Shown: positions 1-41,119, counted from the stretch's first letter. The stretch is DNA of 64,000 nucleotides from Gammaproteobacteria bacterium (GCA_050306135.1 JBNLGQ010000029.1:43585-107584), one strand, 5' to 3'. A program made the numbers and translations. The notes: generated from the letters alone by a model not told the origin.

Positions 1-207
1 GTGAATATGCTCAGGGTAGGGCGTATTGCTTTGTTATATCAAACCAGAGACAGGGCTTTCTGCGGGCTATGGGATCGTAAGGAAAACAGGTGGATGCCAC
101 TGGATAACAGTGAATATCGCAATTCGATTGTTCAGGGACTGAGGATCGCAAAAAATCAGGCCGCAATTGAATTGCTTCAGTTGCCTGTGGCAGGAGTTAG
201 CCAATGA
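1..207 (+). CDS. 3' end of the gene upstream of ttpC; possibly a TtpB/DUF3450-like protein (partial)
   Basis: The ORF runs in from the left edge and overlaps the start of the ttpC-like gene by 4 nt. It is assigned only by synteny with Vibrio TonB2 clusters (ttpB-ttpC-exbB-exbD-tonB-ttpD). I recognise no motif in it. Confidence 0.3.
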   Translation: MNMLRVGRIALLYQTRDRAFCGLWDRKENRWMPLDNSEYRNSIVQGLRIAKNQAAIELLQLPVAGVSQ

Positions 208-1607
208 AGCTATTACACAAACAGGCTTTGATGGTACTACTTGCAGGACTTATATCAGTCATGGTCAATAGCGTACAGGCTCAGTCAGCACATAGCCTTG
301 ATCAGTTACTTGAGCAGGTTAAGCTGTCGAAACAGCTTTCTGGTAAGGAGAATAAGCAACGCGAAACTGAGTTTTTACAACAGAAGAATCAGCAGAAGGA
401 GAAACTAACACAGGCGCAAGCACAACTTAAGCAGCTTGAAAAAAACAGTGCAGAACTGGAGCAGCAGTTTGCCACCAACGAACAGCTGATACAGGCCAAA
501 CGTCAGCAGCTACAGCAACGTATGGGTAACTTAAAAGAACTGTTTGGACATCTCACTGCTGCGTCAGGAGATTTTCGTAGCAATATAGAAACCTCTATCA
601 TCAGTGCGCAGTATCCAGGGCGTGAGCAGGTGTTTGATCAGTTAATCGATAAAATGAGTAATGCCACATTGTTACCCGAGGTAAGTGAGATAGAAGCACT
701 GTGGTATGAAATGTTAAGAGAAATGACTGAATCCTCAAAGGTTGTTCGCTTTAATGCTGAAGTGATTAAACCGGATGGTGAAACGCGTAAGCAATCGATT
801 ATACGCATTGGCACCTTTAACCTGGTGAGTGAAGGGAAATACCTCAGTTATTCGTCGCAAAGTAACAGCATTGGCGAATTAAGCCGTCAACCCGCTTCAA
901 ACTATACCAGTGCTACCCAGCAACTGGAGTCGTCAACAGCTGCTTATACCCGAATTGGAATAGATCCGACAGGGCCGAGCGGAGGTAGTTATTTATCCGC
1001 ATTAGTTGATACACCAACATTGCTTGAACGCTGGCATCAGGGTGGAATTGTGGGATATATCATTACCGCCATTGGTGCGATCACTGCCCTGATAGTGCTG
1101 TGGAGAATAGTGGTGTTGAGTCTAATGGAATCGAGCGTATTAAAACTGTTAAAAGCCAAAACACTGGATAAGCAACAGAAGCTCAACAATGCATTGGGGC
1201 GGGTACTGATGGTCCATCTGAATAATCCATCAATGGATGCTGAAACACTGGAAGCCAAACTCAGTGAAGCAATTTTAAAAGAGCGCCCAGCTATAGAACG
1301 TTATCTCCCGCTATTAAAGATTGTAGCCATGGTTGCTCCTCTGTTAGGGCTGCTGGGGACTGTAGCCGGAATGATCATGACCTTTCAGGCTATTACCATT
1401 TATGGCGCAGGCGACCCTAAAGCCATGGCGAGTGGAATATCCAGTGCACTGGTGACCACCGTGCTAGGTTTGCTGGTGGCTATACCTACAGTGTTTGCGC
1501 ATTCACTGCTCAATGGTAAGGCACAGAATATTTTGCACATACTGGAACAGCAAAGCATGGGGCTAATCGCTCGCCATACCGAGTCACAGTTATCCGCTAA
1601 GGGGTGA
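204..1607 (+). CDS. TtpC-like MotA/TolQ/ExbB-family protein; long N-terminal coiled-coil with a C-terminal proton-channel domain
   Basis: 467 aa. It has a signal/TM segment, a Q/E/K-rich coiled coil, and C-terminal TM helices carrying the 'LLGLLGTVAGMIMTF' MotA/TolQ/ExbB signature. It precedes exbB-exbD-tonB as ttpC does in TonB2 systems. Confidence 0.7.
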   Translation: MKLLHKQALMVLLAGLISVMVNSVQAQSAHSLDQLLEQVKLSKQLSGKENKQRETEFLQQKNQQKEKLTQAQAQLKQLEKNSAELEQQFATNEQLIQAKRQQLQQRMGNLKELFGHLTAASGDFRSNIETSIISAQYPGREQVFDQLIDKMSNATLLPEVSEIEALWYEMLREMTESSKVVRFNAEVIKPDGETRKQSIIRIGTFNLVSEGKYLSYSSQSNSIGELSRQPASNYTSATQQLESSTAAYTRIGIDPTGPSGGSYLSALVDTPTLLERWHQGGIVGYIITAIGAITALIVLWRIVVLSLMESSVLKLLKAKTLDKQQKLNNALGRVLMVHLNNPSMDAETLEAKLSEAILKERPAIERYLPLLKIVAMVAPLLGLLGTVAGMIMTFQAITIYGAGDPKAMASGISSALVTTVLGLLVAIPTVFAHSLLNGKAQNILHILEQQSMGLIARHTESQLSAKG

Positions 1608-2140
1608 GCATGAGACTAGACGAGATTGTTATTTTACTACTCGACTTTATGCATAAGGGTGGTGAAGTCATGTGGCTGATTGCATTGTTGGCTTTGCAGT
1701 TATGGACGCTGGTTTTCGAAAGACTGTGGTATCTATCCAGCGGCATTTACAGGGAGTTTCAAAAAGTTAAAGCAGATTGGTTAAAACGAGGTGATCATTA
1801 TTCCAGATCGGCAAAACATATTCAGGCGGCGGCTATTGCACGTTTGTATCAAAAGATAGACCTGAATATCAATCTGGTCAAAACACTGGTTTTACTCTGC
1901 CCCTTATTAGGTCTGCTGGGCACTGTTAGTGGCATGATATCGGTATTCGATGTGATTGCCTTTACCAGCATGGGTGATGTCAAGCTGATGGCGAATGGAG
2001 TATCTCGCGCTACCATTCCAACCATGGCGAGTATGGTGATTTCTATTTCAGGCCTGATGGCCCATACCTGGCTACGCAAAATAGCAGATGGTAGAAAACA
2101 ACAGATTAACGAAGACTTCAGCGGTGAGCAACATGCGTAA
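1604..2140 (+). CDS. exbB: ExbB/TolQ-family biopolymer transport protein
   Basis: 178 aa with three TM helices and the 'LLGLLGTVSGMI' motif. Its start overlaps the ttpC stop. It begins at GTG 1604 or ATG 1610. Confidence 0.75.
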   Translation: MSMRLDEIVILLLDFMHKGGEVMWLIALLALQLWTLVFERLWYLSSGIYREFQKVKADWLKRGDHYSRSAKHIQAAAIARLYQKIDLNINLVKTLVLLCPLLGLLGTVSGMISVFDVIAFTSMGDVKLMANGVSRATIPTMASMVISISGLMAHTWLRKIADGRKQQINEDFSGEQHA

Positions 2141-2543
2141 AAGTTTGATTCAAAGAGCAACCCAGAATGATGAATCAATGGTTGATATGACACCCATGCT
2201 GGATGTGGTTTTTATTATGCTGATCTTTTTTATCGTGACCGCATCCTTTGTCAAGGAAAGCGGTATCGAGGTGCAGCGTCCACAGGCAGAAACTGCTGAA
2301 GCGAAAGAAAATGCCAGCATTCTGATTGCCATTAGTGCCAGCAATGAAATCTGGATTGATCAACGCAGAATTGATATTAGATCCGTACGTGCCAATGTAG
2401 AGCGCCTGCATGCTGAAAACCCCAAAGGTTCAGTGATTATTCAGGCCGATGAAAGTGCCACAGTAAAAACCCTGACAGCAGTGACCGATGCCTCGCGTCA
2501 GGCGGGTGTGAGAGAGGTGTCTGTCGCAACCATGAAACAATAA
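2133..2543 (+). CDS. exbD: ExbD/TolR-family biopolymer transport protein
   Basis: The sequence 'MTPMLDVVFIMLIFFIV' is the typical ExbD N-terminal TM helix. ATG 2133 overlaps the exbB stop (ATGCGTAA). The longer ORF from 2088 is probably not used. Confidence 0.75.
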   Translation: MRKSLIQRATQNDESMVDMTPMLDVVFIMLIFFIVTASFVKESGIEVQRPQAETAEAKENASILIAISASNEIWIDQRRIDIRSVRANVERLHAENPKGSVIIQADESATVKTLTAVTDASRQAGVREVSVATMKQ

Positions 2544-2549
2544 ATAAAC

Positions 2550-3161
2550 ATGTTATTGCGTCAGCTAATATTTGTGGGGCCTGCGTTACTGGTAACTGCA
2601 GGCCTGTTCATCTTGATGACATCTATCCTGCATCATGATGAATATCAGATTGACGATCAGGGTAGCATTCTGGCGGCTGACTTCCTGATGCCCGAGCGCA
2701 GGATAGAAACCATGCGCCAGATTGAAAAACCGGAAAAGCCAGAAATCAGGACCGAACCGCAGCTCCAATTACCTGAAGTCACCCTGTTAAATAACCAGTC
2801 CTCAATGGAAGAAATCCCGAAATTCAAAGTACCCAGAATGGAGGCTAATGTAAAGATCAATATGAGCCTGCCACAGTCATCGGGAGATAGTGATTACATG
2901 CCTGTACTAAAGGTAGCTCCATTATATCCCCAACGTGCACTTAAACGTGGCCAGGAAGGTTATGTGCTTGTTGAATTTACTGTGACACGCAGTGGTACAG
3001 TGCGCGATGTTAAAGTGATTGAGTCCAAACCTAAATACCTGTTTGATAATGCAGCAATAGAAGCGGCGAGAAAATTCAAATACAAGCCACGAAAAGTGGA
3101 TGGTGAACCAGTAGAAGTGCATGGTGTGCGAAATCAGTTTTCTTTCCGGCTGGAGAAGTAA
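2550..3161 (+). CDS. tonB: TonB-family energy transducer (C-terminal TonB domain)
   Basis: 203 aa with an N-terminal TM anchor, a Pro/Glu-rich spacer ('EKPEKPEIRTEPQLQLPEV'), and a C-terminal TonB fold ('YPQRALKRGQEGYVLVEFTVTRSGTVRDVKV'). Confidence 0.7.
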   Translation: MLLRQLIFVGPALLVTAGLFILMTSILHHDEYQIDDQGSILAADFLMPERRIETMRQIEKPEKPEIRTEPQLQLPEVTLLNNQSSMEEIPKFKVPRMEANVKINMSLPQSSGDSDYMPVLKVAPLYPQRALKRGQEGYVLVEFTVTRSGTVRDVKVIESKPKYLFDNAAIEAARKFKYKPRKVDGEPVEVHGVRNQFSFRLEK

Positions 3162-3164
3162 CTC

Positions 3165-4376
3165 ATGCGCAAGGTGTTATATCTGATTCTAATGATGTGC
3201 CTGACTTTTCCGCTTATTGCAACGGCAAAAACGGCACCGGTAGTCAGAGAGCGCATACTGACGCAATTACAGAAGTCTCAAAAAATGATAGAGGCTGGAG
3301 AGTACAGCAAGTCTTTTGAATTGTTGAATGAACTGAGTGAAGCAGAATTAACTAACTATGAACACTCACAGGTTTACAAATTACTCGCCTACCAGTTTTT
3401 TCAGTCGAATGAATACAGTAAGGCAATACCTTACTACCAGAAAATTCTACAGCTTGAGGATTTGCCACAGTTCACAGTGGATGAATCGCTTTATAGTCTG
3501 AGCCAGCTATATTTCTCAGTGGAGGATTATGTTTCAGCTGAAAAAATATTAAGTCAGTGGTTTGAGCATAACCCTGATGCAGGTGTGCTGGCCTACGAAC
3601 TACAGGGACAGATTTATTATCAGCTCAAGCAGAAAGCACAGGCGATTAAATCATTAACGAAAGCCATAGAGTTAAATCAGCAAAACAATAAACCGCCACG
3701 CCAGAACTGGTTGCAAATGTTACAGGGGCTTTATTACGAATCAGGAGATATATCCAGCACCATTAAAACGGTAGAGCAATTAATCCACTATTACCCCAAA
3801 AAAGTTTACTGGTTACAGCTAGCCGGTCTGTATGGCGAGCAGGAGCAAATAGACAGGCAGCTGTATGTGATGGACGCAGCCTATACCGAGGGCTTGCTGA
3901 ACAGGGAAAGCGAGTTAAAAAATCTTGCCTATCTATATCTCGATCAGCAGGTGCCATATCAGGCAGCAAAAATTTTACAGAAGGGGCTTGATGCAAAACT
4001 GATAACGCCAACTGAAAAAAATCTGCAACTACTGGCCGATGCCTGGCGTATGGCAAAAGAAATCAAACCCTCGATTGAGGCCCTGGAACTGGCCGCAAAA
4101 AAGGCCACGCATGGCAATCTTTATGCTCAGCTGGCACAGTTATATTTGCAGGACGAACAATATAAACAGGCTGAATCAGCCGCAAAACAGGCAATAGAAA
4201 AAGGGAGCTTAAAACAAATCGGTCAGCTGTATAACACACTTGGCATAGCCTTATTCAAACAGCAGAGATATGCATCCGCTAAGCAGGCGTTCACAAAAGC
4301 TAAACAGGATCCTGAAGCGAAAAAGACAGCTCTGCAATGGATAAAATATGTGGAAAGTTTTGAAGGCAAAGGCTAG
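3165..4376 (+). CDS. TPR-repeat protein (TtpD-like, TonB2-system associated)
   Basis: 403 aa with a signal peptide and repeated TPR-like helix pairs ('YYQKILQLED', 'AIKSLTKAIELNQ', 'AKQAFTKAKQ'). It occupies the position of ttpD downstream of tonB2. Confidence 0.6.
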   Translation: MRKVLYLILMMCLTFPLIATAKTAPVVRERILTQLQKSQKMIEAGEYSKSFELLNELSEAELTNYEHSQVYKLLAYQFFQSNEYSKAIPYYQKILQLEDLPQFTVDESLYSLSQLYFSVEDYVSAEKILSQWFEHNPDAGVLAYELQGQIYYQLKQKAQAIKSLTKAIELNQQNNKPPRQNWLQMLQGLYYESGDISSTIKTVEQLIHYYPKKVYWLQLAGLYGEQEQIDRQLYVMDAAYTEGLLNRESELKNLAYLYLDQQVPYQAAKILQKGLDAKLITPTEKNLQLLADAWRMAKEIKPSIEALELAAKKATHGNLYAQLAQLYLQDEQYKQAESAAKQAIEKGSLKQIGQLYNTLGIALFKQQRYASAKQAFTKAKQDPEAKKTALQWIKYVESFEGKG

Positions 4377-5960: not shown

Positions 5961-6485
5961 CTGCCCTCTGGGCGAGATCAATGCATCGATAACTTCAAAT
6001 TTCAACGGATCAATTCCATTAGCTTGTATAAAGAGGCAAGTATAACCGATCAGGTTATTGCTTATACAATCCAATACATGCTAACTGGAATTCAAAAAAT
6101 ATCACTTATTCAGCATCAATGAGAAGGAATAATATTGAATGAATAGTGCAATAAGTGGAAAACTCGGGTCAGAGAGGAATAGCACTTAAATAAGGCTAAC
6201 ATGCAGTTAATGCAAGGAAGGTAATCTCTTTGGCAGTGGGAATTCGTCAAGGTAAGAGATTCCATCCTCAGGCCCATAGAGAGGTCATATTTGTGCCTCT
6301 CATGCCGCGTGAAGTTTAGCCCTTCTGCCCTTTAGAATTTTTGTAGAAATAAGCAAGATCAGTCTTAATGGAGTCATCCTTGGGTATTTTTGTAGGAATA
6401 TTCTTACCTTTTTAATAGCTCTGTAATTTCATCAAATAACCTATAATAGCTCGCGTTTTACTAACATTTTTAACATAGTAGTTTT

Positions 6486-8495
6486 ATGAAAGCATTAAGG
6501 GTACTCACCTGTTTATTATTTGGTTTGTCAATATTATTCAATTATGCTAATGCAGGTATTAAGCTTAATAAGAAGGACGTCCATATAGGTATTACAAAAA
6601 AACCGCTATGGGTTTCGAATATATCAATCGATTATACAAAACCTGATTCGCTCAGATCTCCCAAGCATTACCACCTTTATGATCAACAATTTAATCTTAT
6701 AGATGGATACCAGAAGTATTTCCGTCATGTATACACACTCAATGATGCTTCTTCAATTGAATCGGCTGCAGATATTAAAATTGAGTTTGATCCATTTTAT
6801 GAAAAACTTGAAATTCACAAGATAAATGTTATTCGCAGTGGGAATACCATTAGCAAATTAAACAAAAAGGATATCCAGATTATCAGTTCAGAAGCTGAAA
6901 AAGATAATAATATTTATTCTGGAACGGTCACGGCATTACTTCTTCTGCCAGATATTCGTAAAGGAGATACCATCGATTATAGTTATACTATTAAGGGTAT
7001 GAATCCTGTTTATCTTAATAAGTTTTCAAAATTTATTAGGCTTGGTTGGCAAATAAATATTGATCATATTCATGTGTCAATCAATACGCCAAAAAATATA
7101 GAACTAAAAATTAACAAATTTGATATAGATGAAGATGTTAAAAGACAGGAGTTTGAAAATAAAAAAGTAATAGAGTTGGATATGTATAATTCTATAGCAT
7201 ATGAAAATGAGGGCAATCTTCCATCGTGGTTTATACCGTACCCCTATTTACAGGTATCCCAGTATGCCACCTGGTCTGATGTATCAGTCTGGGCAAACAG
7301 TCTTTTTGATGATGAAGAAACTCATTCAGCATCTTTAACAAATTATATAAGTAAGCTAATGGCGATGGATAAAACATCTGCTATAAACCATGCAATCAAT
7401 TTCGTCCAGAATAATATACGTTATTTAAGTTTAAATATTGCCGAAAACTCGCACAAGGCTCATTCTGTAAATGAAGTTTTTGAAAACAGATATGGTGACT
7501 GTAAGGATAAGGCTCAATTGTTATCAGTTATTTTGCGTACTATAGGTGTTAGAGCATATCCTGCATTAGTAAGCTCTAAAAATTCTATATTTATGAATCA
7601 TGCATTAGCTGGTCATGATTTATTTGATCATGCAATTGTGATGATGAAGATTGGTAATGAAGTGACATGGGTTGACCCGACGATTACCTATCAAGGTTAT
7701 AATTATCGAGAAAAATATCATCCTGATTATGGACTAGCATTGGTGGTTAACCATGAGTACTTTTCGGAATTGACCAGAATGAATAAGCCGAGTCCGACAT
7801 CTGTTTTTATTGAAGAGCAAATTGTTACAGCTGACTATTCCTCACCTGCTGACTGGGAAATTAAAACCATATTTATCGGAAGTGAAGCCGAAGATATGCG
7901 CTACCGATTAGCTCGTGATGGGATAAAAAAAACCGAAAAAAAATATCTGAACTATTACGCAGAGAAATATCCTGAAATAGAAAAATCTTCAGATCTTAAA
8001 ATTGAAGATGATACTGAAAAGAATCAAATAACGATCAAGGAGTTCTACTCGGTACCAGGATTTTGGGATCAATTAAATACAGGGGAGGTTGGTTTTAACC
8101 TGGATGCCGATTATATGGGGGATTATGTTAAATTGCCAAAAACGGTTAAAAGATTTCAGCCTTTGAAAATCTATCACCCTGTTTCTATAAATCATAAGGT
8201 GACTTTGCTACTTCCTGAGCATCTTGACTGGTCGAAGGTGGCTTCAACAGAAAATATTGATGACGATTATGTTGTTTTTAAATCAATTACCTCTTTTGAT
8301 AATCGTAGATTTATATTTGAGAACAGCTATAAATCTAAAAATGGTTTTATTAGTGCAGATAAAATTCCTGATCATTTGGAATTGCTCAAAAAAATTCGTA
8401 GCAATTTAAGGTTTGCGGGGAGCATCTATGATATAGAAAATTACGCTGGTAAAAAGGCAGTGGAAGATTTGTTAAATGCAATCACAGATCTTTAA
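6486..8495 (+). CDS. Secreted transglutaminase-like cysteine protease-fold protein with an N-terminal DUF3857-like domain
   Basis: 669 aa with a signal peptide. It carries a transglutaminase-like Cys-His-Asp core: 'YGDCKDKAQLL' (Cys), 'LFDHAIVMM' (His), and 'WVDPT' (Asp). The nucleotide composition is markedly AT-rich compared with its neighbours. Confidence 0.65.
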   Translation: MKALRVLTCLLFGLSILFNYANAGIKLNKKDVHIGITKKPLWVSNISIDYTKPDSLRSPKHYHLYDQQFNLIDGYQKYFRHVYTLNDASSIESAADIKIEFDPFYEKLEIHKINVIRSGNTISKLNKKDIQIISSEAEKDNNIYSGTVTALLLLPDIRKGDTIDYSYTIKGMNPVYLNKFSKFIRLGWQINIDHIHVSINTPKNIELKINKFDIDEDVKRQEFENKKVIELDMYNSIAYENEGNLPSWFIPYPYLQVSQYATWSDVSVWANSLFDDEETHSASLTNYISKLMAMDKTSAINHAINFVQNNIRYLSLNIAENSHKAHSVNEVFENRYGDCKDKAQLLSVILRTIGVRAYPALVSSKNSIFMNHALAGHDLFDHAIVMMKIGNEVTWVDPTITYQGYNYREKYHPDYGLALVVNHEYFSELTRMNKPSPTSVFIEEQIVTADYSSPADWEIKTIFIGSEAEDMRYRLARDGIKKTEKKYLNYYAEKYPEIEKSSDLKIEDDTEKNQITIKEFYSVPGFWDQLNTGEVGFNLDADYMGDYVKLPKTVKRFQPLKIYHPVSINHKVTLLLPEHLDWSKVASTENIDDDYVVFKSITSFDNRRFIFENSYKSKNGFISADKIPDHLELLKKIRSNLRFAGSIYDIENYAGKKAVEDLLNAITDL

Positions 8496-8516
8496 ATAAA
8501 CATTTTTATTATAAAT

Positions 8517-9701
8517 ATGAAAACCATATCCAAGGCATTTTCTCTATTCGCTATTCTATTATTTTTAGCTGGTTGTAATTCTTTGAAAGTTGATGAAAAC
8601 GTTGGCAGTCAACAATTGCAACCCTCTTTAAAAGAACTATCCATTTATAATTTCAATAAAAAATTTGAAAATGCCTTAAATAATAAAAATTTTGATTTCA
8701 TAAAAAGGATCATCAGTTCTGAATCAATAATAAAATACCTGGAGAAAAAATATTTGCCTGAGTATGCTGACGTTGCCTTTCTTTTTGGTGGAAAAGATAA
8801 ATTTGAAAAACTAATAGATTTTGGTCATATATTTAAATCAGGTATTGTTAAGGTTTTAGATAATAATCCAAATAACAACAACTGGACATATTTGTATTCT
8901 CAGTATAGCAAGGAAAGCGAGCTTACGATTAGCTTGTATAGGATCATTATAGAAGGAAGGTTGCAGTATATAAAATTTTACTTTGATGAAGATAGAAAAC
9001 TCGTTGATCTTCATGTGGCAGGTTATAAATATAGTGATTTTGATCTAATGGTTAATATGATGGCATTGCCATTAAGATCCGGCAAAAAGAGTAATAATTA
9101 CTACGATATAATACGAAGATTCACTGAAAATACCAAAAACTCAGACATAGAAAAATTAGAATCTGATTTCAAAACTTTAGACGATGAGTTAAAAAACTCT
9201 GATGTATTTTACGATTTCTTACTGAAGTTACAAGTGAGCTTACAGAAAGAGCCAGCAAAAAAATTTATTACCCTTATGCAGGAACATATGAAATATCAAA
9301 GCTTTTTGTTGTACCCGTACTTAGAGAATGTTGAAATCACTGAAGAAAGGATACTGTATATAGAAAACTTATTGAATTTCACCAATAATGACAGTAACGC
9401 TCTCTCCGATTTATCTTTGACTTATGCCCAAACAGGTGACTTTATAACAGCCTTAAGACTAGGAAAAAAGGCGCTTATGAAGAGTCCCGAAGATGAGGAG
9501 ATATTTTGGGATTTTCTTGAAGTTACTATTTTGTCTGGACGTTTTGATTTAAGCACTAAGATCCTTCGTGTTCTAAACGAAAAATTCCAAATAAAACTTA
9601 ACGAAGAAAATCTTGCGGCGCTAGATCAATACCCAAAATTCATCAACTCTCAATCATACAAGGTATGGCTCACCGAAAATAAGATATCCTCAGGTCAATA
9701 A
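8517..9701 (+). CDS. Lipoprotein with C-terminal TPR-like repeats (function unknown)
   Basis: 394 aa with the lipobox 'LLFLAGC'. It is Asn/Lys-rich and low-GC. The C-terminal region is TPR-like ('LSLTYAQTGDFITALRLGKKALMKSPEDEE'). It lies 21 nt downstream of the transglutaminase-like gene. Confidence 0.5.
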   Translation: MKTISKAFSLFAILLFLAGCNSLKVDENVGSQQLQPSLKELSIYNFNKKFENALNNKNFDFIKRIISSESIIKYLEKKYLPEYADVAFLFGGKDKFEKLIDFGHIFKSGIVKVLDNNPNNNNWTYLYSQYSKESELTISLYRIIIEGRLQYIKFYFDEDRKLVDLHVAGYKYSDFDLMVNMMALPLRSGKKSNNYYDIIRRFTENTKNSDIEKLESDFKTLDDELKNSDVFYDFLLKLQVSLQKEPAKKFITLMQEHMKYQSFLLYPYLENVEITEERILYIENLLNFTNNDSNALSDLSLTYAQTGDFITALRLGKKALMKSPEDEEIFWDFLEVTILSGRFDLSTKILRVLNEKFQIKLNEENLAALDQYPKFINSQSYKVWLTENKISSGQ

Positions 9702-9905
9702 TAGGTGTGCAATAATTTTACTTGATAAGGTAGAAAGTATAATCATACCACTTTTTCAACATTTAAACGGATCTCGCACCCCGTACTATTGCAATATATA
9801 GAAAGCTTGAATTTAATATGTGAAATCTATTCGAGAATACATCGTTTACTATCTTCTTATACTAGTGAAAACCGTACGAATTTTTTAATATTAGATCTGA
9901 CAACT

Positions 9906-10325
9906 TCATTTCAACCTATTCCTGATACCACTAACAAAACCTCCAAGTACAGGAATATGCTCGTACAACATCGCACCAACATCATAATAATCGCGATGAA
10001 AATAAACCAGATCATCAAATTTTAAATGACTCACACCATCAACATGAATGGTTTTAGATTTATTCAAGCGAGGATGCTGGAAGTGCATGGTCCAGATGAC
10101 AAAAGCCTCCTGTTCCTGTTCTGTTACCTGATGGATTTCAAAATTACAATGTAATAAATCTTCCATCATGTTTTTGAAATATTTATCCAGTGCCTGTCTG
10201 CCCTTCATATGGTGTATAGGGTCTATGAACTCAATATCCTGGTGGTAAACCTGATTCAATCCGCTCAGGTCAGCACTGTCTAACTGTTGATAAAATTGAT
10301 TGAACTTTTCCAGTGTAGGATTCAT
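9906..10325 (-). CDS. NTF2/SnoaL-like fold protein, last gene of the photolyase operon
   Basis: 139 aa, assigned by pattern similarity to the SnoaL/ketosteroid-isomerase-like family. Its start lies 2 nt after the phr stop. Confidence 0.45.
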   Translation of the reverse strand: MNPTLEKFNQFYQQLDSADLSGLNQVYHQDIEFIDPIHHMKGRQALDKYFKNMMEDLLHCNFEIHQVTEQEQEAFVIWTMHFQHPRLNKSKTIHVDGVSHLKFDDLVYFHRDYYDVGAMLYEHIPVLGGFVSGIRNRLK

Positions 10326-13586: not shown

Positions 13587-14570
13587 TTAGTTGGTGCGCG
13601 ATATTTCAAGCTCAATATATTCAGGTGATAGTGTGTTATCGTCGGGAGCTGGTACTGCAGTAGCATCCCTTAAGCGAGCTTCAATGCGGGCTGAATTGAT
13701 GTATTTCTGCTGTTGAATATCTGGATAAAGTCGATGTAAGCGCTCTACGCACAGCGCCTGTCTGGTTGCCTGCTGTTCGAACAGGCTACGTTGTTCTCTT
13801 GTCAGGGTGGGCAGGGTCAGCAGATAAGGGGCCAGGAAATTCAGATAATCTTCAAATATAAAATCGTCGATATTGGTTTGTATGACCTCAGGGATAAAGA
13901 ACTCAGGAAAATAGGCGTTTTCCATTTCTCGCCCTTCCAGTGACTCACTAAGTTCGATCCCCGTCAGGCCGATGGAGATATCGTGCTGACGATGAAACCA
14001 CTGGGCCTGCGGTGATTTGCCTGCCATGGATTTCACCGTGGACTCAAGCAAGCGCGTAAAGGGCTGTTGAGTGCTATTACCCTGTTGTTTGTTACTAAAG
14101 AAATCCTTACAGGCCATACCCGCTGTCCAGCTCAGAGGCAGATCGTAATACAGGCGATTGGCGGCAAAAGAGCTACCCAGTAATGCCAGTGGCTGATCAT
14201 TCTGATCCAGCAACCACAGCTCGAAATCATCGGTGAGAGAAAATGGTGCCTGCTGAGCATGTTGCAGCAGGTATTCATATACCACCAGTCCCTGGCGCTC
14301 CATTTCATTAAAATCTTCCGATGGGTAGAGCGGGCCACGTCTGAGACCACTGGTCTCTGACCAGTGACCAAAACGGATTTCGGTAATCAGCATATCGGGA
14401 GATTGTTCCAGGTCTCGCGTCAGGCTCATATCCTTGACGTAGATATCCCAGTTGACGCCATCGATAGTCACTGCTTCGGCCCCCTGGTATTCGATGATAT
14501 TCATCACACCGCGAAAGGGATTAAGCAATCGTACTGCGTGTCTTTGGATCTGGTTATGCTCGGTGGCCAT
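13587..14570 (-). CDS. Hypothetical acidic protein (327 aa), no recognisable domain
   Basis: The ORF is long and uninterrupted, with codon usage like its neighbours. There is a 119-nt gap before the photolyase operon. Confidence 0.45.
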   Translation of the reverse strand: MATEHNQIQRHAVRLLNPFRGVMNIIEYQGAEAVTIDGVNWDIYVKDMSLTRDLEQSPDMLITEIRFGHWSETSGLRRGPLYPSEDFNEMERQGLVVYEYLLQHAQQAPFSLTDDFELWLLDQNDQPLALLGSSFAANRLYYDLPLSWTAGMACKDFFSNKQQGNSTQQPFTRLLESTVKSMAGKSPQAQWFHRQHDISIGLTGIELSESLEGREMENAYFPEFFIPEVIQTNIDDFIFEDYLNFLAPYLLTLPTLTREQRSLFEQQATRQALCVERLHRLYPDIQQQKYINSARIEARLRDATAVPAPDDNTLSPEYIELEISRTN

Positions 14571-33025: not shown

Positions 33026-33985
33026 ATGGAACAACTCACTGACCTCAAAGCCATCCTTCATTCCAAACGGGCAAATATCTACTATCTGGAAAAATGCCGG
33101 GTGATGCAAAAAGACGGGCGAGTTCTTTATCTCACCGAAGCCAAAAACGAAAACCAGTACTGGAACATACCCATAGCCAACACCACCTGCATCCTGCTAG
33201 GGACAGGAACTTCAATAACTCAGGCAGCAATGAGAATGCTGGCCTCAGCCGGAGTCATGGTCGGCTTCTGTGGGGGCGGTGGCACGCCTTTACTGATGGC
33301 TACCGAAATAGAATGGCTAAGCCCGCAAAGCGAATACCGGCCCACAGAATACCTACAGGGCTGGATGCAATTCTGGTTTAATGATGACAAACGATTGCAA
33401 GCAGCCAAACAATTTCAATTAGCTCGTATTGATTACCTGAACACACTCTGGAGTAAAGACCGCGATCTAAAGTCCGAAGGCTTTGCTAGTGACTACCCCT
33501 TTATCCAACAGGCGATAGAAAACTGTCAGGCCAAAATCAAAGTCGCACCAAAAGTCAGCCAACTGCTACAGGCCGAAGCAGAGTTCACCAAACAACTCTA
33601 CAAACATGCCGCACACAGTACAAAATATGGGGACTTCACGCGCGAGCGAGAATCTGTAGATACCGCTAATGCCTTTTTAAATCATGGCAATTACCTGGCC
33701 TACGGACTAGCCGCAACAACTTTATGGGTGCTGGGTATACCACATGGCTTCGCCGTAATGCATGGTAAAACGAGGCGTGGCGCACTGGTTTTCGACATAG
33801 CCGATCTCATCAAAGACGCCATCGTCCTGCCCTGGGCGTTTATTTGTGCCAAAGAAGGAGCCAGTGAACAGGAATTCCGTCAGCAATGCCTGCAGGCGTT
33901 TACCGACCATAAGGCTCTGGATTTTATGTTTGATCAGGTGAAGGCAGTAGCTCTCAAACAGGACTGGGTGGATATACGGTCATGA
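33026..33985 (+). CDS. cas1: CRISPR integrase Cas1, type I-F
   Basis: The match to P. aeruginosa Cas1 is very close: 'ILHSKRANIYYL', 'YWNIPIANTT', 'LLGTGTSITQAAMR', 'GVMVGFCGGGGTPL', 'LTPQSEYRPTEYLQ', 'NHGNYLAYGLAATTLWVLGIPHG', and 'LVFDIADLIKD'. Confidence 0.92.
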   Translation: MEQLTDLKAILHSKRANIYYLEKCRVMQKDGRVLYLTEAKNENQYWNIPIANTTCILLGTGTSITQAAMRMLASAGVMVGFCGGGGTPLLMATEIEWLSPQSEYRPTEYLQGWMQFWFNDDKRLQAAKQFQLARIDYLNTLWSKDRDLKSEGFASDYPFIQQAIENCQAKIKVAPKVSQLLQAEAEFTKQLYKHAAHSTKYGDFTRERESVDTANAFLNHGNYLAYGLAATTLWVLGIPHGFAVMHGKTRRGALVFDIADLIKDAIVLPWAFICAKEGASEQEFRQQCLQAFTDHKALDFMFDQVKAVALKQDWVDIRS

Positions 33986-36900
33986 TGGTGACCTTTGTAT
34001 CCCAATGCGAAAAGAAAGCACTCAATCGAACTCGCAGAGTGCTGGATGCTTTTGCTGATCGTATTGGTGATAACACCTGGCAGACCGTGATAACGCAAGA
34101 GGGGCTCCTTGCAGTAAAAAAACTACTTAGAAAAACCGCAACAAAAAATACCGCAGTGAGCTGTCACTGGATACGCTCGCGATCCCGCAGTGAATTGATT
34201 TGGGTGGTGGGAAATAGAAGTAGGTTTAATGAGCAAGGTTATGTTCCGGTGAATCTAACTGATAGTCATATCGAACAATTTCAGGACAAGGTACAGTGGC
34301 AAATGTTGCCAGTTATTCAATACGCAGCAAGCATTTCAGGTTTGTTTCATGACTTCGGCAAAGCCAACAAACTGTTTCAGAAAAAAATTGACCCTCATGA
34401 CAAAGACTCATCAATATTTGAACCCTATCGGCATGAGTGGATTTCTTTACGCCTTTTTCAGGCGTTCGTAGGGGATAAAACTGATGCAGAATGGTTGGAC
34501 GAGTTGGCAGATATTAATCCTGATATCGTAGTAGCCTGCTTCCGTGATGGACTAGAAGGTGGCGTGGATAAAGAAAATAACCCATTTCTAAATCTACCTG
34601 CATTTGCGCGTATCGTAGCCTGGATTATTCTGTCACATCACCGCTTACCGTTATCGCCATCATGGCAAGACAATGAGAGGCCAGCCAGATTCGGCGAAAT
34701 GCAATCATGGTTGGAAATTGACTTTGATGCCGTCTGGAACTCCTACCGCTGTAAGGATGCAGACCAAAAAGAACGCATTGAAGACAATTGGCACTTTGCC
34801 GATAAATCACTGCCTTACTTCAGCCAACATTGGAGAGCCAAAGCCTGCACCACAGCGTCTGAGGCTAAGCAAAATCTCAGTTTATGGCTCAACGATAGTG
34901 CAAAAGACTGGATACTTGACCACTTGTTTGTCAGTCATTTGGCTCGCTTGTCAATGATGCTGGCGGATCACCATTATTCCTCTCGACCCAGAGTCACACA
35001 TAAATGGCGCAACCCCAATTACAAGGTATATGCCAACTCAGACCGATTTACAAAACAACTCAAGCAACAACTTGATGAACACTTAATTGGGGTTTCTTAC
35101 AATGCCGAGCGCATTGTGCGCAAGTTATCTAAGCTGAAAGATAGTCTGGAAAAACTCGGTGATAATGAATTTTTAAGTGAGCCGGTTTCGAAGGAGAATA
35201 AAGATGCTTTTGGTTGGCAAGATGCCGCCATAGAGGTTGTAAGAAAATGTGCCGCAGAAACAAGGGGAAAAGGTTTCTTCGGCATCAATATGGCATCCAC
35301 TGGTAAAGGCAAAACCCTCGCTAACGCCAAAATCATGTATGCACTGGGTGAAAATACAGGTGGTGTTCGTTTCAGCGTGGCACTAGGCTTGCGCACACTA
35401 ACCTTGCAAACAGGTCGCGAATTCCGCAAAGAATTAGATCTCAACGAAGAGCAGCTTGCGTTGTTAGTAGGTGGTACAGCGGTTAAACAATTATATGAAA
35501 ACAGCCAAAACCAACAACAAGGCAAGAGTGATCCTGAAGATATGGGAAGTGAATCAGGGCAGGAATATTTGCCAGATGAGCTAAAAGTGAATTACAGCGG
35601 GACTGTAACAAAGCATGCGCTCAGTGAGTGGACGAGAGAAAATCCGCGTATGGACAACATGCTATGCGCACCTGTGCTGGTAAGCACAATCGATCACCTT
35701 ATCCCCGCAACGGAAGGTGTTAGGGGAGGTAAACAAATCGCCCCGATGTTGCGCCTGTTAACCTCCGATCTTGTTTTGGACGAGCCGGATGATTTTGGCT
35801 TGGAGGATTTGCCAGCCTTATGTCGTTTGGTGCATTGGGCGGGAATGCTGGGCAGTCGTGTTTTGCTCTCTACTGCGACCATGCCGCCTGCTCTAGCCTA
35901 CGCATTATTTCAGGCATATAAAGCAGGCTGGGCACAGTATGCCAAAGCCAATCTGGCAGATTGGAATGGTGAAATTTGTTGTGCCTGGTTTGATGAGTTT
36001 AAGCGTAATGCAAGAACAACGAATGTATCTCAATTCAAAAATAGCGAAGCTAAGGGTTTGGCAGCCAAGGCGCTATTTATCAATGCACATAAATCCTTTG
36101 TGTCAGACCGGCTGGCTGAGCTAAGTAAAAACGACATTGCAAAGCGTCAGGGGGAAATCATCTACCCTGATGCACCCTTATCTCCAAGTCAAGCCATCGC
36201 CAAACTATGTCACAAAAAAATAGTTGAGCTGCACCATCAACACCATGTGCGACGAGAAGATGGTAAAACGGTGTCTATTGGTTTGATTCGTATGGCCAAC
36301 ATCAACCCATTGGTGGCAGTAGCACAGAAAATGCTGCAAATGGATGCACACCCAAACACCCGGATTCACTATTGCGTGTATCACAGCCGCTATCCCTTAG
36401 CATTACGCTCTTTCATTGAAAACCGTTTAGATACAGTGCTTTCTCGAAAGAAAGTGGATGAGTTCTGGCAACGCGAGGAAATCACCAGGCCGCTATCACA
36501 GTATCCTGACAGTAATCATCACATTTTTGTAGTCTTAGCTTCACCGGTTGCCGAGGTGGGGCGAGATCATGATTACGACTGGGCGATAGTTGAGCCAAGC
36601 TCGATGCGTTCGATAATTCAGTTGGCGGGGAGGATTTTGCGCCACCGCGAATTAGAAAAGCCGCTGAAGGCTTCCAATGTATTGATACTCAACAAAAACA
36701 CCAAAGTGCTGCAAAATGAGCAAGTTTGTTATTACCGACCAGGCTTTGAAAGCATTGGTTTAAGATTGTCACCACATGAACTGTTAGACACAAAACAGTT
36801 TGCGCAGATTGATGCATCTCCCCGTATTGAAGAGCCTGACTTAAATGGAATAGAAGTGACAGAAAAGGGGAAGTCTCCCTATATCAAATACTCCAATCTA

Positions 36901-37359
36901 AACGAGTTAGAACATGCTGCTCTTAAAAAACAGTTATTCACAGGAACTAAAAAAGCAAAGTTGTGGTGGTCAGAACAACCCCATTGGTGTGGCGAAATGC
37001 AAAAACAACAACGCTTTCGTGAGTCAAAGAAGGATGAGGCTTTTTACCTGTATGTGGATGACGAGTACAAAGAACCTAACTGGCGTTGGCTTAACGAAAA
37101 TGCGCGACCCGCCAAGTTTGGTGAGGTATCGAGTATCAACATAAAAAAAGTACCGGAATTTGGTAAAGGATTAAACAGTGGCTTCTGGTTTGAGATGGAT
37201 ACAAAGTCGATTTATAGCCAGCTAGCAGATGATTTTGGTGTTGAGTTACCTGAGGTTAGCTGCCGTTACGGCGAAGTACGAATAGTTGAATATGAAAATA
37301 ATGATGCTGAATATCTTTGGCATGAAGCTTTAGGGTTATTTCAGGAGGTTAATATCTAA
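33982..37359 (+). CDS. cas3: Cas2-Cas3 fusion (Cas2 domain + HD nuclease + SF2 helicase), type I-F
   Basis: It has an N-terminal Cas2-like segment ('VSQCEKKALNRTRRVLDAFADRIGDNTWQT...AVSCHWIRSRSRSELIWVVG'), an HD motif ('LFHDFGKANKLFQ'), Walker A ('MASTGKGKTLANAKI') and DExD ('LVLDEPDDF'). It overlaps cas1 by 4 nt. Confidence 0.92.
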   Translation: MMVTFVSQCEKKALNRTRRVLDAFADRIGDNTWQTVITQEGLLAVKKLLRKTATKNTAVSCHWIRSRSRSELIWVVGNRSRFNEQGYVPVNLTDSHIEQFQDKVQWQMLPVIQYAASISGLFHDFGKANKLFQKKIDPHDKDSSIFEPYRHEWISLRLFQAFVGDKTDAEWLDELADINPDIVVACFRDGLEGGVDKENNPFLNLPAFARIVAWIILSHHRLPLSPSWQDNERPARFGEMQSWLEIDFDAVWNSYRCKDADQKERIEDNWHFADKSLPYFSQHWRAKACTTASEAKQNLSLWLNDSAKDWILDHLFVSHLARLSMMLADHHYSSRPRVTHKWRNPNYKVYANSDRFTKQLKQQLDEHLIGVSYNAERIVRKLSKLKDSLEKLGDNEFLSEPVSKENKDAFGWQDAAIEVVRKCAAETRGKGFFGINMASTGKGKTLANAKIMYALGENTGGVRFSVALGLRTLTLQTGREFRKELDLNEEQLALLVGGTAVKQLYENSQNQQQGKSDPEDMGSESGQEYLPDELKVNYSGTVTKHALSEWTRENPRMDNMLCAPVLVSTIDHLIPATEGVRGGKQIAPMLRLLTSDLVLDEPDDFGLEDLPALCRLVHWAGMLGSRVLLSTATMPPALAYALFQAYKAGWAQYAKANLADWNGEICCAWFDEFKRNARTTNVSQFKNSEAKGLAAKALFINAHKSFVSDRLAELSKNDIAKRQGEIIYPDAPLSPSQAIAKLCHKKIVELHHQHHVRREDGKTVSIGLIRMANINPLVAVAQKMLQMDAHPNTRIHYCVYHSRYPLALRSFIENRLDTVLSRKKVDEFWQREEITRPLSQYPDSNHHIFVVLASPVAEVGRDHDYDWAIVEPSSMRSIIQLAGRILRHRELEKPLKASNVLILNKNTKVLQNEQVCYYRPGFESIGLRLSPHELLDTKQFAQIDASPRIEEPDLNGIEVTEKGKSPYIKYSNLNELEHAALKKQLFTGTKKAKLWWSEQPHWCGEMQKQQRFRESKKDEAFYLYVDDEYKEPNWRWLNENARPAKFGEVSSINIKKVPEFGKGLNSGFWFEMDTKSIYSQLADDFGVELPEVSCRYGEVRIVEYENNDAEYLWHEALGLFQEVNI

Positions 37360-38894
37360 TGAGCACAGGAAAAACAATGCATGATGCAATCCAGCATTTT
37401 ATTTTAGAGCGGAAAGCGAAGAAAGAAGAAGCTCTCCTTGCAACTAAGCTTGAGAAAGATAAGGATGGCGGGCTAAACAAAATTTTAATTAAAACCATCA
37501 AGTCTACGAAAAAAACAACTAATGATGATTTAAACAGCATTGCAACCAGAAAAAAGTCCAAAGACGAGACTTCACTAAATTTTCATGCCCAAAAATATCA
37601 TGATCTAATCACCTTGGCTGAAGGCAATCAAATAGATCTAGCGGAGTACAAAGAGACATATTTATTACAAAAACAAAAGGTGGATGATTCTCATCAGTTT
37701 GCTACGTGGTTGGATGATAATTGTAGATATGCAGAAGGTGCTTCGGTTGCAACACATGTGTCTAAGCTAACCCATTCATCCAATAAAGCATCTTGTTTTT
37801 TTGATCAAATTCATGACAAAAAATCAGGGTATGTTACAACGTCAATGATAAGCAAGCCGGTTGTCGATGGAGCTTACGATAATGCCAAGTATTCTCCAGT
37901 CGTCTCCCTGCTATTAGTTGAAAATGAAGGGCGATTTTTTTACGAAGATATCATCGAAGGTAAATATGATGGATTGCTAGGTTTTGAGGAGAACGATGAC
38001 CAAATAAATACATGGAGAACCGAGCTAAAAAAGTCAATTGATAAACCAAGCAAAGCAACTGACGGGTTATCTAAGCAAGTCTATTTTCCTTTGAAAAAAA
38101 TCTCCGTAAATTCCAACGATTGGCATTTACTCTCCGTGCTTGTTTCCTCTTCGATGGCACATTCGATCTTCAATATGACTGCATCAAAAGTGTTCAACGA
38201 CCATAATAAGTCTTTGAGGGATAAATATAGAGCTAAGTCTCTATACAGCCCCGAGACACTGATCAGCCACCCGAAAACAGCCACATTGATGGTGACTCAA
38301 AGCTCTCATCAAAATACTTCCCAACTGAATGGTGCACGCAGTGGTAGATTGATATTGACTTCATCCCAGCCACCCACATGGCAACGCCAAGTAACCCCCC
38401 CAATCTATCAAAACTCATGGTTTCGCTACGGCATTCCATACAGCACTATAAAAGAAGATATTAAATACTTACGTGAATTTTTATTACGTAATGACAGGTT
38501 AGAGTTGAGTACTCGTGACCCGAAAAAACATAAGTGGCTGGAAAGTTGGGGAGAGCAAATTCTTGATGAGGTGATGTATCAGGCCAACATCATTCAAGAG
38601 CTACCAGCAGGCTGGTCGGCAGTGGAGGACATCAAGCTCAAAAAAGCACATCAATATTTTCTTGATCCCTACCGAGATGATGTAGGCTTTCAGGGAGAGC
38701 GAGAGGCCACTGATTGGGAACCGGAAGTCTGCGCTGATTTTTCGCGCTGGTTGAATAATCATCTGAAAGGAAAAGACAAGGCCTTTTCCCCGCAACCAGA
38801 GCATAGTAAATTGTGGAAAAGTCTAATGGCTGCGGCTCTACGTGAATTGAAAGATACACAAAAATTCTCCTTTGAGAAGGAGGTAAACGCATGA
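37359..38894 (+). CDS. csy1: Csy1 / Cas8f, large subunit of the type I-F Cascade
   Basis: Blocks are shared with P. aeruginosa Csy1: 'KQVYFPL', 'LTSSQPPTWQRQVTPPIYQNSWF' (compare 'LPSLPPNWQRQNV...SSVF'), and 'FSRWLNNHL'. At 511 aa it is about 75 aa longer at the N-terminus than the 434-aa reference. Its start overlaps the cas3 stop (TAATG). Confidence 0.85.
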   Translation: MSTGKTMHDAIQHFILERKAKKEEALLATKLEKDKDGGLNKILIKTIKSTKKTTNDDLNSIATRKKSKDETSLNFHAQKYHDLITLAEGNQIDLAEYKETYLLQKQKVDDSHQFATWLDDNCRYAEGASVATHVSKLTHSSNKASCFFDQIHDKKSGYVTTSMISKPVVDGAYDNAKYSPVVSLLLVENEGRFFYEDIIEGKYDGLLGFEENDDQINTWRTELKKSIDKPSKATDGLSKQVYFPLKKISVNSNDWHLLSVLVSSSMAHSIFNMTASKVFNDHNKSLRDKYRAKSLYSPETLISHPKTATLMVTQSSHQNTSQLNGARSGRLILTSSQPPTWQRQVTPPIYQNSWFRYGIPYSTIKEDIKYLREFLLRNDRLELSTRDPKKHKWLESWGEQILDEVMYQANIIQELPAGWSAVEDIKLKKAHQYFLDPYRDDVGFQGEREATDWEPEVCADFSRWLNNHLKGKDKAFSPQPEHSKLWKSLMAAALRELKDTQKFSFEKEVNA

Positions 38895-40108: not shown

Positions 40109-40117
40109 GGAGAAAGA

Positions 40118-41111
40118 AATGACGACCAAAGCGAAAGAAATTGACCTACCCAGTATGTTGGCATTTGAGCGAAAGCTGGAAGTGTCTGATGGACTGATGT
40201 TTGCTGGTAATTGGAGCGACCTTGCCGAAGAAAATGCTTGGGAGGCTATTAAGGTTGTGCCGCGTAAAAACCGCTCAACGCAAAGTGCTGCTGGCATTAA
40301 GGATGAGGAAAAATCTAAGCCAAACCCTGTTTCGGCAGATAATGATGATGCAAACCTGCCATATGACAAAGATACTCTAAAAGTCAGTTTCACTCTGCGT
40401 ATGATTGGGGATTTGGGCACTCCGTTCGGCTGCAATGACCCTGAATTCGAGAAAGCAATTCACAGCAAGGTAACTGAGTTTAAAGAACAAGGATTGAAAG
40501 AACTGGCACACCGCTATGCACAGAATATTGCCAGCGGGCGTTTCTTATGGCGTAACCGCATCTGTGCTGAAGAATTGCTGATTCAGGTCAGAATTAATCA
40601 TGGTGAGGATCTCATCGAACTTAATGGTTACGACTTCGCGTTAAATGATTTTGCGGCTAGCCGTCAAGACAACAAATTAGTCCAACTAACAGAGGCTATT
40701 TACCAAGGCTTGGTGGGTACACAAGATTTTGTTTTGCTGGAGGTTGATGCCTTTGTTCGCCTGGGCGCTGGTCAGCATGTGTTTCCATCGCAAGAAATGA
40801 ACATGGGCGATAAGAAAAAAGTGCTTTTCAAACTGGGAAAAGATAATAACCAGGCCGCTATGCATAGTGTGAAGTTAGGGAATGCTATTCGCACTATTGA
40901 TGATTGGTATCGCGAGAATGCTGAATTTCCGATTGCGGTAGAGCCCTATGGCTCAGTTACTCAGCGTGGCGAAGCCTACAGAAAAAGCAAAACAGACTTG
41001 TACACATTAATGTTGGACTGGGTGAATGATAAGCCTGTTGCAGACGAACAAAAATGCTATGTGTTAGCAAACCTGATACGTGGTGGCGTTTTTGGTGGAA
41101 AAAGTGAATAG
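40118..41111 (+). CDS. csy3: Csy3 / Cas7f, Cascade backbone subunit
   Basis: It is near-collinear with PA14 Csy3: 'LAFERKLEVSDGLMFAGNW', 'TLKVSFTLRMIGDLGTPFGCNDPEF', 'LAHRYAQNIASGRFLWRNR', 'VLLEVDAFVRLGAGQHVFPSQEM', 'IAVEPYGSVTQRGEAYR', and 'ANLIRGGVFGG'. The start is set at ATG 40118 behind an AGGAGA RBS. Confidence 0.9.
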
Positions 41112-41119
41112 GATCTAAG

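Follow-up and report, generated by a model that had tools for sequence, protein, structure and literature searches.

A two-gene cassette at positions 6486-9701 of a 64,000-nucleotide stretch of DNA from a Gammaproteobacteria bacterium (GCA_050306135.1 JBNLGQ010000029.1:43585-107584; the whole stretch is referred to here as the window) encodes a predicted exported protein with a transglutaminase-like fold, named A, and a predicted lipoprotein of a family without annotation, named B, which appears to be the dedicated partner of A. Gene A (6486..8495, + strand) is an open reading frame (ORF) of 669 amino acids with a DUF3857 domain and a transglutaminase-fold core, and gene B (8517..9701, + strand) is an ORF of 394 amino acids. 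It is highly probable that A and B form a conserved functional module, and likely that the pair was laterally acquired in this genome; the complete reading, in which an acquired operon supplies a periplasmic A together with B as its partner, is the one that we favour on balance. The enzyme-partner module, the unannotated partner family and the minimal mobile cassette are new here, whereas the A family itself is known. A preliminary description of this DNA, made from the sequence alone, had pointed to a low guanine-plus-cytosine (GC) two-gene islet at this place, and both ORFs were recovered at the coordinates that it gave.

Gene order was compared across nine readable loci, a sample out of a larger B family, comprising the window, L002, L004, L097, L086 (Catenovulum sediminis), L087 (Corallincola platygyrae), L088 (Catenovulum sp. 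2E275), L090 and L092. In 9/9 a B-family gene lies directly 3′ of a gene for a DUF3857-transglutaminase protein of ~670 amino acids, on the same strand, with a spacing of -4 to +21 nt between the two genes and frequent overlap of start and stop codons; a tenth locus, L089, ends 154 nt upstream of B and is not countable for pairing. The B proteins at these loci include highly diverged members, such as that of Catenovulum, which is 24% identical to the window B over its full length (E = 1e-22), and that of Corallincola, which is 20% identical over about two-thirds of B (E = 9e-9). A natural fusion of the two proteins was also found: residues 13-656 of the 1041-amino-acid protein P0192 match all of A (31% identity, E = 2e-95), and residues 690-1040 match positions 40-387 of the B profile (hhalign probability 99.9%, E = 3e-33). 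The join between the A and B parts of P0192 carries neither a signal peptide nor a lipobox, which indicates that mature B is genuinely fused to the C-terminal end of A and that the protein is no read-through of neighbouring genes. As read from its sequence, P0192 is the strongest evidence that A and B are one module. Adjacency at all nine loci together with this fusion argues that A and B act together, as the preliminary description had supposed when it treated them as a functional pair. Two long DUF3857 proteins that contain tetratricopeptide repeats (TPRs), P0092 and P0079, were tried as further A-B fusions and rejected (hhalign probability <1%), and a hypothetical gene 3′ of the Aureibacter DUF3857 gene proved to be unrelated to B.

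Both genes are AT-rich far beyond the window's own variation. The reference for base composition was the set of 44 other non-overlapping window ORFs of >=150 amino acids, which have a GC content of 0.456 ± 0.025 and a GC content at third codon positions (GC3) of 0.456 ± 0.040. Gene A has GC 0.332 and GC3 0.279 (z-scores of -4.9 and -4.4, respectively) and gene B has GC 0.313 and GC3 0.316 (z-scores of -5.6 and -3.5, respectively), and a 1-kb profile of the 64-kb window falls below 0.35 GC at the A-B stretch only. Asn, Lys and Ile together account for 25.7% of the residues of A and 25.6% of those of B, compared with 16.3 ± 2.8% in the window ORFs (z ~ +3.4). The low GC and the Asn/Lys/Ile bias are in agreement with the preliminary description.

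Three further copies of the cassette were identified in other genomes by blastn, each as one continuous match, with 86% identity over window positions 6386-9703 (L004), 74% identity over 6387-9701 (L002) and 71% identity over 6391-9701 (L097). Homology among the four copies runs from 95-100 bp 5′ of the ATG of A to the stop codon of B, a unit of 3.3 kb, and there is no conserved element past the B stop codon among the cassette copies. The limits of 6486-9701 originally drawn for the islet are thus those of the genes, whereas the conserved unit is 6386-9703. The four neighbourhoods have only the cassette in common. In the window the pair stands between ppnN (left flank; NCBIfam NF038390 equivalog) and a SnoaL-like gene and, beyond it, a photolyase gene (right flank; Pfam); in L002 the pair is accompanied by a gene for a 148-amino-acid secreted protein and lies upstream of tex; in L004 it lies between isocitrate lyase-LysR genes and an H+-pyrophosphatase gene; and in L097 it lies between a PAS-GGDEF gene and an HD-GYP gene. 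In all four copies the GC3 of the pair is 0.28-0.36, against 0.42-0.62 in the flanking genes. Synonymous divergence (dS) between the window copy and L004 is 0.39-0.68, and for the other five copy pairs it exceeds 1 and is saturated.

The recurrence of the same unit in four unrelated neighbourhoods, AT-rich relative to its flanks each time, supports lateral acquisition, as proposed in the preliminary description, and we consider it likely that the pair was acquired in this way. More distant A-B pairs, in distant hosts, have host-like GC, which shows that AT-richness is not intrinsic to A and B genes. That GC3 has not drifted in genomes of 45-52% GC despite the divergence of the copies means either that there were separate acquisitions from an AT-rich pool or that AT-richness is actively maintained. 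The closest outgroups are only 35-39% identical, which implies an unsampled donor pool. Carriage by a plasmid and origin from a defence system or phage were also considered and rejected: no plasmid matched B and the nearest match to A on a plasmid has 28% identity, and there were no PADLOC or PHROG matches. A metagenome scan with alignment A3 for further cassette copies found none.

Identical repeats bound the pair in one of the other genomes. In L002, a 5,304-bp low-GC unit containing the pair is bracketed by identical 77-nt repeats that include the first 44 nt of tex, and a second assembly has this unit as a 5,381-bp contig (L003) with the 77 nt as overlap between its two ends. The unit consists of ~860 bp without ORFs, the A and B genes, and the gene for the 148-amino-acid secreted protein. 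The arrangement may represent an island with direct repeats, a tandem copy or an excised circle. As 77 is a typical assembler k-mer, the true repeat in L002 and L003 may be longer. In L004, just 3′ of the cassette, a 538-bp repeat of 99% identity (6784-7320 and 8434-8971, 1.65 kb apart) is tied to the presence of a truncated and a full-length H+-pyrophosphatase gene, and must have arisen by local duplication or as an artefact of assembly.

An alternative is that the pair is not foreign but an old resident, in which case selection or a local mutation bias would keep up the AT-richness and ordinary rearrangement would account for the varied neighbourhoods. Several observations fit this account and so weigh against acquisition in the window. 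There are no tRNA genes in the 64-kb window, and no integrase or transposase among the annotated ORFs between 0.2 and 22 kb, an absence that had already been noted for the flanks. Around the window copy there are no flanking repeats comparable to those of L002 and L003, the only candidates being matches of repeat families D5 and D19. No empty site, that is, a ppnN-SnoaL junction without the pair, was observed: the identical SnoaL protein occurs in eight contigs, and the pair is present in 8/8. The GC3 of 0.28-0.36, held in four copies of which five of the six pairings are saturated, has active maintenance as one explanation, and the adjoining SnoaL-like gene is also AT-rich (GC 0.376). The old-resident account is nevertheless very unlikely, because the edges of homology are sharp and identical, from promoter to stop codon, in four unrelated contexts, because the L002/L003 unit is bracketed by identical repeats, because the distant pairs have host-like GC, and because the remoteness of the closest outgroups implies an unsampled donor pool.

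The junctions of the window cassette were followed in other genomes as well. A search of genome contigs with PpnN returned 80 loci, the closest of which are only 74-76% identical and hint no more than loosely at a Thiotrichaceae-like gammaproteobacterium as the source; in none of the 80 does a homologue of another window gene occur within 10 kb of ppnN. Among the three closest PpnN contigs, which come from metagenome-assembled relatives, two (L006 and L008) break off at the 5′ end of ppnN, the position that the cassette occupies in the window, which may be a coincidence or may mark a strain-variable spot. On the other side, a metagenome scan with the window photolyase gave no match; the 90% cluster of this photolyase includes P0209 and P0210 from JGI, with P0210 encoded on a contig of 21.2 kb. 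The SnoaL/DUF2358-like gene (9906-10325; GC3 0.393) is ~3 standard deviations under the window mean in composition, starts 2 nt past the photolyase stop codon, and lies outside the cassette homology in other genomes.

The 100 bp upstream of A (6386..6485, + strand), in which homology with the three other copies starts, presumably contain the promoter and operator. In alignment A1 the conserved block extends from TTTTTGTAGGAATA through to the ATG of A. At the left edge of the cassette is a near-palindrome, GTAGGAATATTCTTAC (6392..6407, + strand), which is found in the same place in all four copies (in L097 as GTAGGAAAAGTCTTAC); this palindrome (GTAGGAAnAnTCTTAC) is, from its sequence, a candidate regulator-binding site. 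A TATAAT hexamer resembling a -10 element (6442..6447, + strand) is read in the sequence 39 nt 5′ of the ATG of A and is conserved in A1. There is no good -35 element upstream of it, which is why it was missed by a promoter consensus scan. A partial direct copy of the left edge, assigned to repeat family D5, lies 49 bp upstream of the edge (6329..6351, + strand) and agrees with it at 19/23 nt (CCTTTAGAATTTTTGTAGAAATA compared with CCTTGGGTATTTTTGTAGGAATA); it was seen only in this genome and was not returned by a motif scan of the three further cassette copies. A 13/15 match of family D19 was rejected as a flanking att repeat and treated as a chance match, as it is not conserved in the other copies. 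Likewise, matches to Rfam in the region were at chance level only and a regulatory RNA was rejected, there is no terminator-like site in the region, and the missing Shine-Dalgarno sequence was discarded as a clue to the donor since about half of the host ORFs are also without one.

Protein A has the features of an exported enzyme. Its N-terminus, MKALRVLTCLLFGLSILFNYANA followed by G, reads as a Sec signal peptide (amino acids 1-23; 6486..6554, + strand; cleavage motif ANA before G), and this segment is the sole hydrophobic 19-mer of A; a hydrophobic N-terminal segment is present in 18/18 aligned homologues, which are 27-86% identical. The signal peptide is followed by a beta-rich DUF3857 domain (amino acids 76-233; 6711..7184, + strand), matched by Pfam PF12969 at 7e-34 (117.7 bits against a cut-off of 24.6) and in 18/18 aligned relatives, and by a transglutaminase/papain-like core (amino acids 289-400; 7350..7685, + strand; Pfam PF01841 and PF04473), in which Transglut_core (PF01841) matches amino acids 293-358 at 3e-7 (31.1 bits against a cut-off of 23). 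Cys339 (RYGDCKDK; codon 7500-7502), His382 (F[DN]HAIV; codon 7629-7631) and Asp397 (W.D[PA]T; codon 7674-7676), all on the + strand and with codons checked, are invariant in the 18-sequence alignment and stand in the canonical order; in the window A the motifs are GDCKD, FDHAIV and WVDPT. The intact Cys-His-Asp core behind a signal peptide that had been recognised from the sequence alone is thus borne out by Pfam and by the homologues. Cys339 is the one Cys of mature A, in keeping with a free nucleophile in a cell compartment that is oxidising. The expectation of DUF3857 and DUF3858 was only half borne out, as DUF3858 (PF12970) had no match in A at E up to 1 and was matched in 2/18 relatives only, at E = 0.077. 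There was also no match in A to BTLCP / DUF920.

A word-filtered search returned 310 homologues of A. The ratio of non-synonymous to synonymous divergence (dN/dS) is 0.10-0.17 for A and 0.12-0.25 for B, values that indicate purifying selection on the two genes. In Bacteroidota, the partnerless homologues of A have a transmembrane helix or several membrane passes at their C-terminal end, and DUF3857 proteins without a B partner, outside the A subclade, were also seen in Sphingomonas and Aureibacter. Partner-bearing A proteins cluster together in a neighbour-joining tree without bootstrap support, and form a gammaproteobacterial subclade of proteins of ~670 amino acids with a lipoprotein partner in place of a membrane anchor. 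The only solved relative of A is PDB 3kd4, a 'putative protease' from Parabacteroides, to which the DUF3857 domain aligns; it was matched at E = 0.0025 with the single sequence and at 4.6e-13 with the family profile (amino acids 90-355).

Protein B carries a predicted lipobox (L-A-G-C, amino acids 17-20; 8565..8576, + strand), with Cys20 as the predicted lipidation site; the sequence LFLAGC fits the pattern [LVI][ASTVI][GAS]C after a signal peptide, and the lipobox Cys is the single invariant residue in 28 aligned B members. A sorting rule based on Asp at position +2 is established for enterobacteria. By this rule the absence of Asp at +2 in the aligned members (0/28) suggests that B is sorted to the outer membrane. 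There is no family match for B in Pfam or NCBIfam, and in a word-indexed search B looked like an orphan, with two relatives among 5.8 billion proteins; the word-indexed search with the B-family alignment added almost no new members. An exhaustive HMMER profile search gave 81 matches at E <=1e-3, most of them 370-400 amino acids long and matched over their full length, and the B family has roughly 60 or more full-length representatives. One relative, P0146 (764 amino acids), matches the B profile in two stretches, is ~2 times the length of B, and looks like a tandem B-B fusion.

An AlphaFold model of B, built on a 50-sequence alignment, has a pLDDT (per-residue confidence) of 86.3 and a pTM (predicted fold score) of 0.83, and shows a signal helix, helices at 43-115 with a four-stranded sheet at 122-167, and an all-helical domain at 174-389. 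On this confident model, B is predicted to consist of an NTF2-like alpha+beta domain (amino acids ~40-170; 8634..9026, + strand) followed by an all-helical TPR-fold domain (amino acids ~174-389; 9036..9683, + strand). Pfam TPR models stay below their cut-offs in B (TPR_19, 15 bits against 25, E = 0.03; TPR_2, 13.7 against 27), with sub-threshold matches at E = 0.03-0.07 confined to amino acids 291-356. However, TPR_19 is matched by 23/50 B homologues at E <=0.01, and the helical-hairpin repeat (TPR) fold is present in the predicted structure. The claim that B is a TPR lipoprotein therefore stands at the level of family and fold (lipobox, model and homologues), whereas this copy falls below the Pfam TPR threshold and the NTF2-like domain is an addition to the earlier picture. 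In pairwise comparison, B and A identities are 75 vs 86%, 56 vs 73% and 24 vs 39%, respectively, so that B diverges ~2 times as fast as A.

All functional statements on A and B are inferred from sequence, predicted structure and gene context, and the inferred layers comprise the periplasmic location, the outer-membrane anchoring, the complex, the role of B as adaptor or activator, and the chemistry and substrate of A. We tentatively propose, in part by analogy with known systems, that A is a periplasmic enzyme and B its adaptor or tether subunit. The signal peptide of A and the lipobox of B would direct both proteins to the same compartment, where B would be anchored by lipid, probably in the outer membrane, and would bind A one-to-one. 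The partnerless relatives of A are held by alpha-helical membrane segments, which in a diderm indicates the inner membrane, facing the periplasm, and this would place A in the periplasm; strict adjacency, frequent overlap and fusion argue for a one-to-one complex. The TPR domain of B, as modelled, may be a protein-binding scaffold, and B could position A, activate it, or recruit substrates for it. A is most likely, by analogy, an envelope cysteine peptidase or acyl-transferase, whose single free Cys would serve in the cleavage, or with lower probability in the cross-linking, of a protein or peptide of the envelope.

The same signal peptide and lipobox were originally taken to indicate a secreted protein with a membrane-tethered partner, possibly involved in surface or host interaction. 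In this alternative A leaves the cell and acts on surfaces or a host as a protease or cross-linker, and B serves as a docking lipoprotein that is exposed at the surface or sits in the outer membrane. Like many interaction factors, the pair is accessory and mobile, and genes for cyclic di-GMP (c-di-GMP) signalling lie within 5 kb of it in 4/9 loci, which recalls the adhesin-cleaving transglutaminase-like protease LapG (PMC3032545). These genes (GGDEF, EAL, HD-GYP and PilZ) were seen near the pair in L097, L086, L087 and L088, and on both sides of it in L097. However, the frequency of 4/9 is not significantly different from the 9/45 found in control loci around ppnN (P ~0.09). No signal for, or neighbouring genes of, type II, type IX or type I secretion were seen, and the genomes are metagenome-derived and come without host-association information. 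The C-terminal transmembrane helices of the partnerless A relatives, which hold these proteins in the inner membrane facing the periplasm, point to a periplasmic, cell-envelope role and away from a released protein. No positive support was found for surface or host interaction, and we regard this alternative as quite improbable.

The main rival to B as an adaptor is that the two proteins form an enzyme-inhibitor pair, in which A is a potentially harmful exported cysteine protease or deamidase and B its cognate periplasmic inhibitor, immunity protein or pro-domain-like chaperone, which would hold A in an inactive state up to its release or activation. NTF2-like folds are common among the immunity proteins of polymorphic toxin systems, and such a domain is predicted in B; in addition, B diverges at ~2 times the rate of A, and fast divergence is frequent in immunity and inhibitor proteins, and the tight spacing of -4 to +21 nt suits stoichiometric co-expression. 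In contrast to polymorphic toxin-immunity pairs, A has no delivery module or secretion-system domain, no secretion-system locus and no type VI secretion system, Rhs or contact-dependent inhibition context is seen in the nine loci, and PADLOC and PHROG gave no matches. A natural A-B fusion is unusual for a toxin-immunity pair, though compatible with a pro-domain-like inhibitor, and the large TPR domain suggests scaffolding. The inhibitor alternative is therefore considered unlikely.

Further points tell against the proposal of a periplasmic enzyme with an adaptor or tether. The fusion P0192 has no lipid anchor, which means that tethering is not the only or essential role of B, and the NTF2-like domain and faster divergence of B would also suit an inhibitor. 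A single observation, the absent +2 Asp, is what suggests outer-membrane sorting of B. On the enzyme side, 3kd4 has no Cys at the catalytic position, which leaves protease activity unproven even for the fold, and a literature search on DUF3857 returned passing mentions only and no experimental datum for the A or B family.

The proposed arrangement of A and B can be set beside well-studied systems. By sequence A belongs to the DUF3857 + Transglut_core proteins, a family that is functionally uncharacterised. It differs from 3kd4 in that Cys, His and Asp are invariant in the A subfamily whereas the catalytic Cys is absent in 3kd4, and from DUF3857 proteins in that DUF3858 is undetected in A and a lipoprotein partner replaces the membrane anchor. 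In Prc-NlpI of E. coli and CtpA-LbcA of Pseudomonas aeruginosa, a periplasmic protease (Prc or CtpA) is directed or activated by an outer-membrane TPR lipoprotein (NlpI or LbcA) that binds to it (PMC7049810, PMC8764530). The A-B pair resembles these systems in combining a soluble exported hydrolase with a TPR lipoprotein, a putative A-B complex being supported indirectly by the adjacency at 9/9 loci and the fusion. However, Prc and CtpA are S41 serine peptidases, whereas A is a transglutaminase-fold protein with no S41 domain, and B has no homology to NlpI and LbcA, in which an NTF2-like domain is missing. With its different enzyme fold, the A-B pair is no member of these systems and the likeness is one of analogy only.

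LapG is a periplasmic Cys-His-Asp transglutaminase-like protease that cleaves a cell-surface protein (PMC3032545, PMC4359373), which establishes that transglutaminase-fold Cys-His-Asp enzymes can work as periplasmic envelope proteases. LapG/BTLCP is nevertheless a family distinct from A, LapG is controlled by the inner-membrane c-di-GMP receptor LapD and involves no lipoprotein, and no LapD/LapA-type genes were seen in the nine loci. With respect to mobility, the pair is like a genomic island in its atypical composition, its accessory nature and its variable chromosomal sites, but differs from classical islands in its size of only 3.3 kb and in having no integrase, tRNA target or flanking repeats in the window. 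Integron cassettes consist of a promoterless ORF with attC and lie beside an integron integrase, whereas the pair has its own 100-bp upstream region, nothing is conserved at the attC position, and no integrase was found.

DUF3857-transglutaminase proteins are widespread in Bacteroidota and Proteobacteria, and none has a known function. One subclade of them is strictly paired with a lipoprotein family that neither Pfam nor NCBIfam detects. This provides a testable hypothesis of an enzyme with an adaptor or regulator, and the B family merits its own database entry. In addition, the cassette offers a small, clear instance of genes being transferred with no mobility machinery that can be recognised. 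The pair is found repeatedly in marine bacteria; current understanding is not overturned, and the pair is a useful lead for envelope biology and for protein families. A more specific and, in its entirety, doubtful extension would be an envelope system of marine Gammaproteobacteria, in which a transglutaminase-fold enzyme with an obligatory NTF2-TPR subunit, held by a lipid anchor in most lineages and joined to the enzyme by fusion in at least one, cleaves, or cross-links by isopeptide bonds, an envelope or surface protein, possibly in connection with c-di-GMP, and spreads as a promoter-to-stop cassette without a recombinase of its own.

The annotated neighbours of the pair encode ExbB, ExbB, ExbD, TonB, a TPR protein, PpnN, the SnoaL-like protein, photolyase, MerR, DUF1722, a hydrolase, Lhr and GntR. 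The first five form a TonB energy-transduction cluster (204-4376) of two MotA/ExbB-family genes, ExbD, TonB (TonB_C) and a 403-amino-acid multi-TPR protein; the cluster adjoins the 3′ end of ppnN directly and is encoded on the other strand. An ORF of 327 amino acids (13587-14570, GC 0.49) with no Pfam family at E <=1e-5 separates the DUF1722 / 2-thiouracil desulfurase gene from the alpha/beta hydrolase gene. Further along, the window contains a complete type I-F CRISPR-Cas locus (33026-44653), in which the ORF at 33026-33985 is presumed to be cas1 by its position, a Cas2-Cas3 fusion (33982-37359; Pfam Cas3_I-F_Cas2) is followed by four more ORFs to 41671, and the array (41986-44653) contains 45 identical 28-nt repeats (Rfam CRISPR-DR4).

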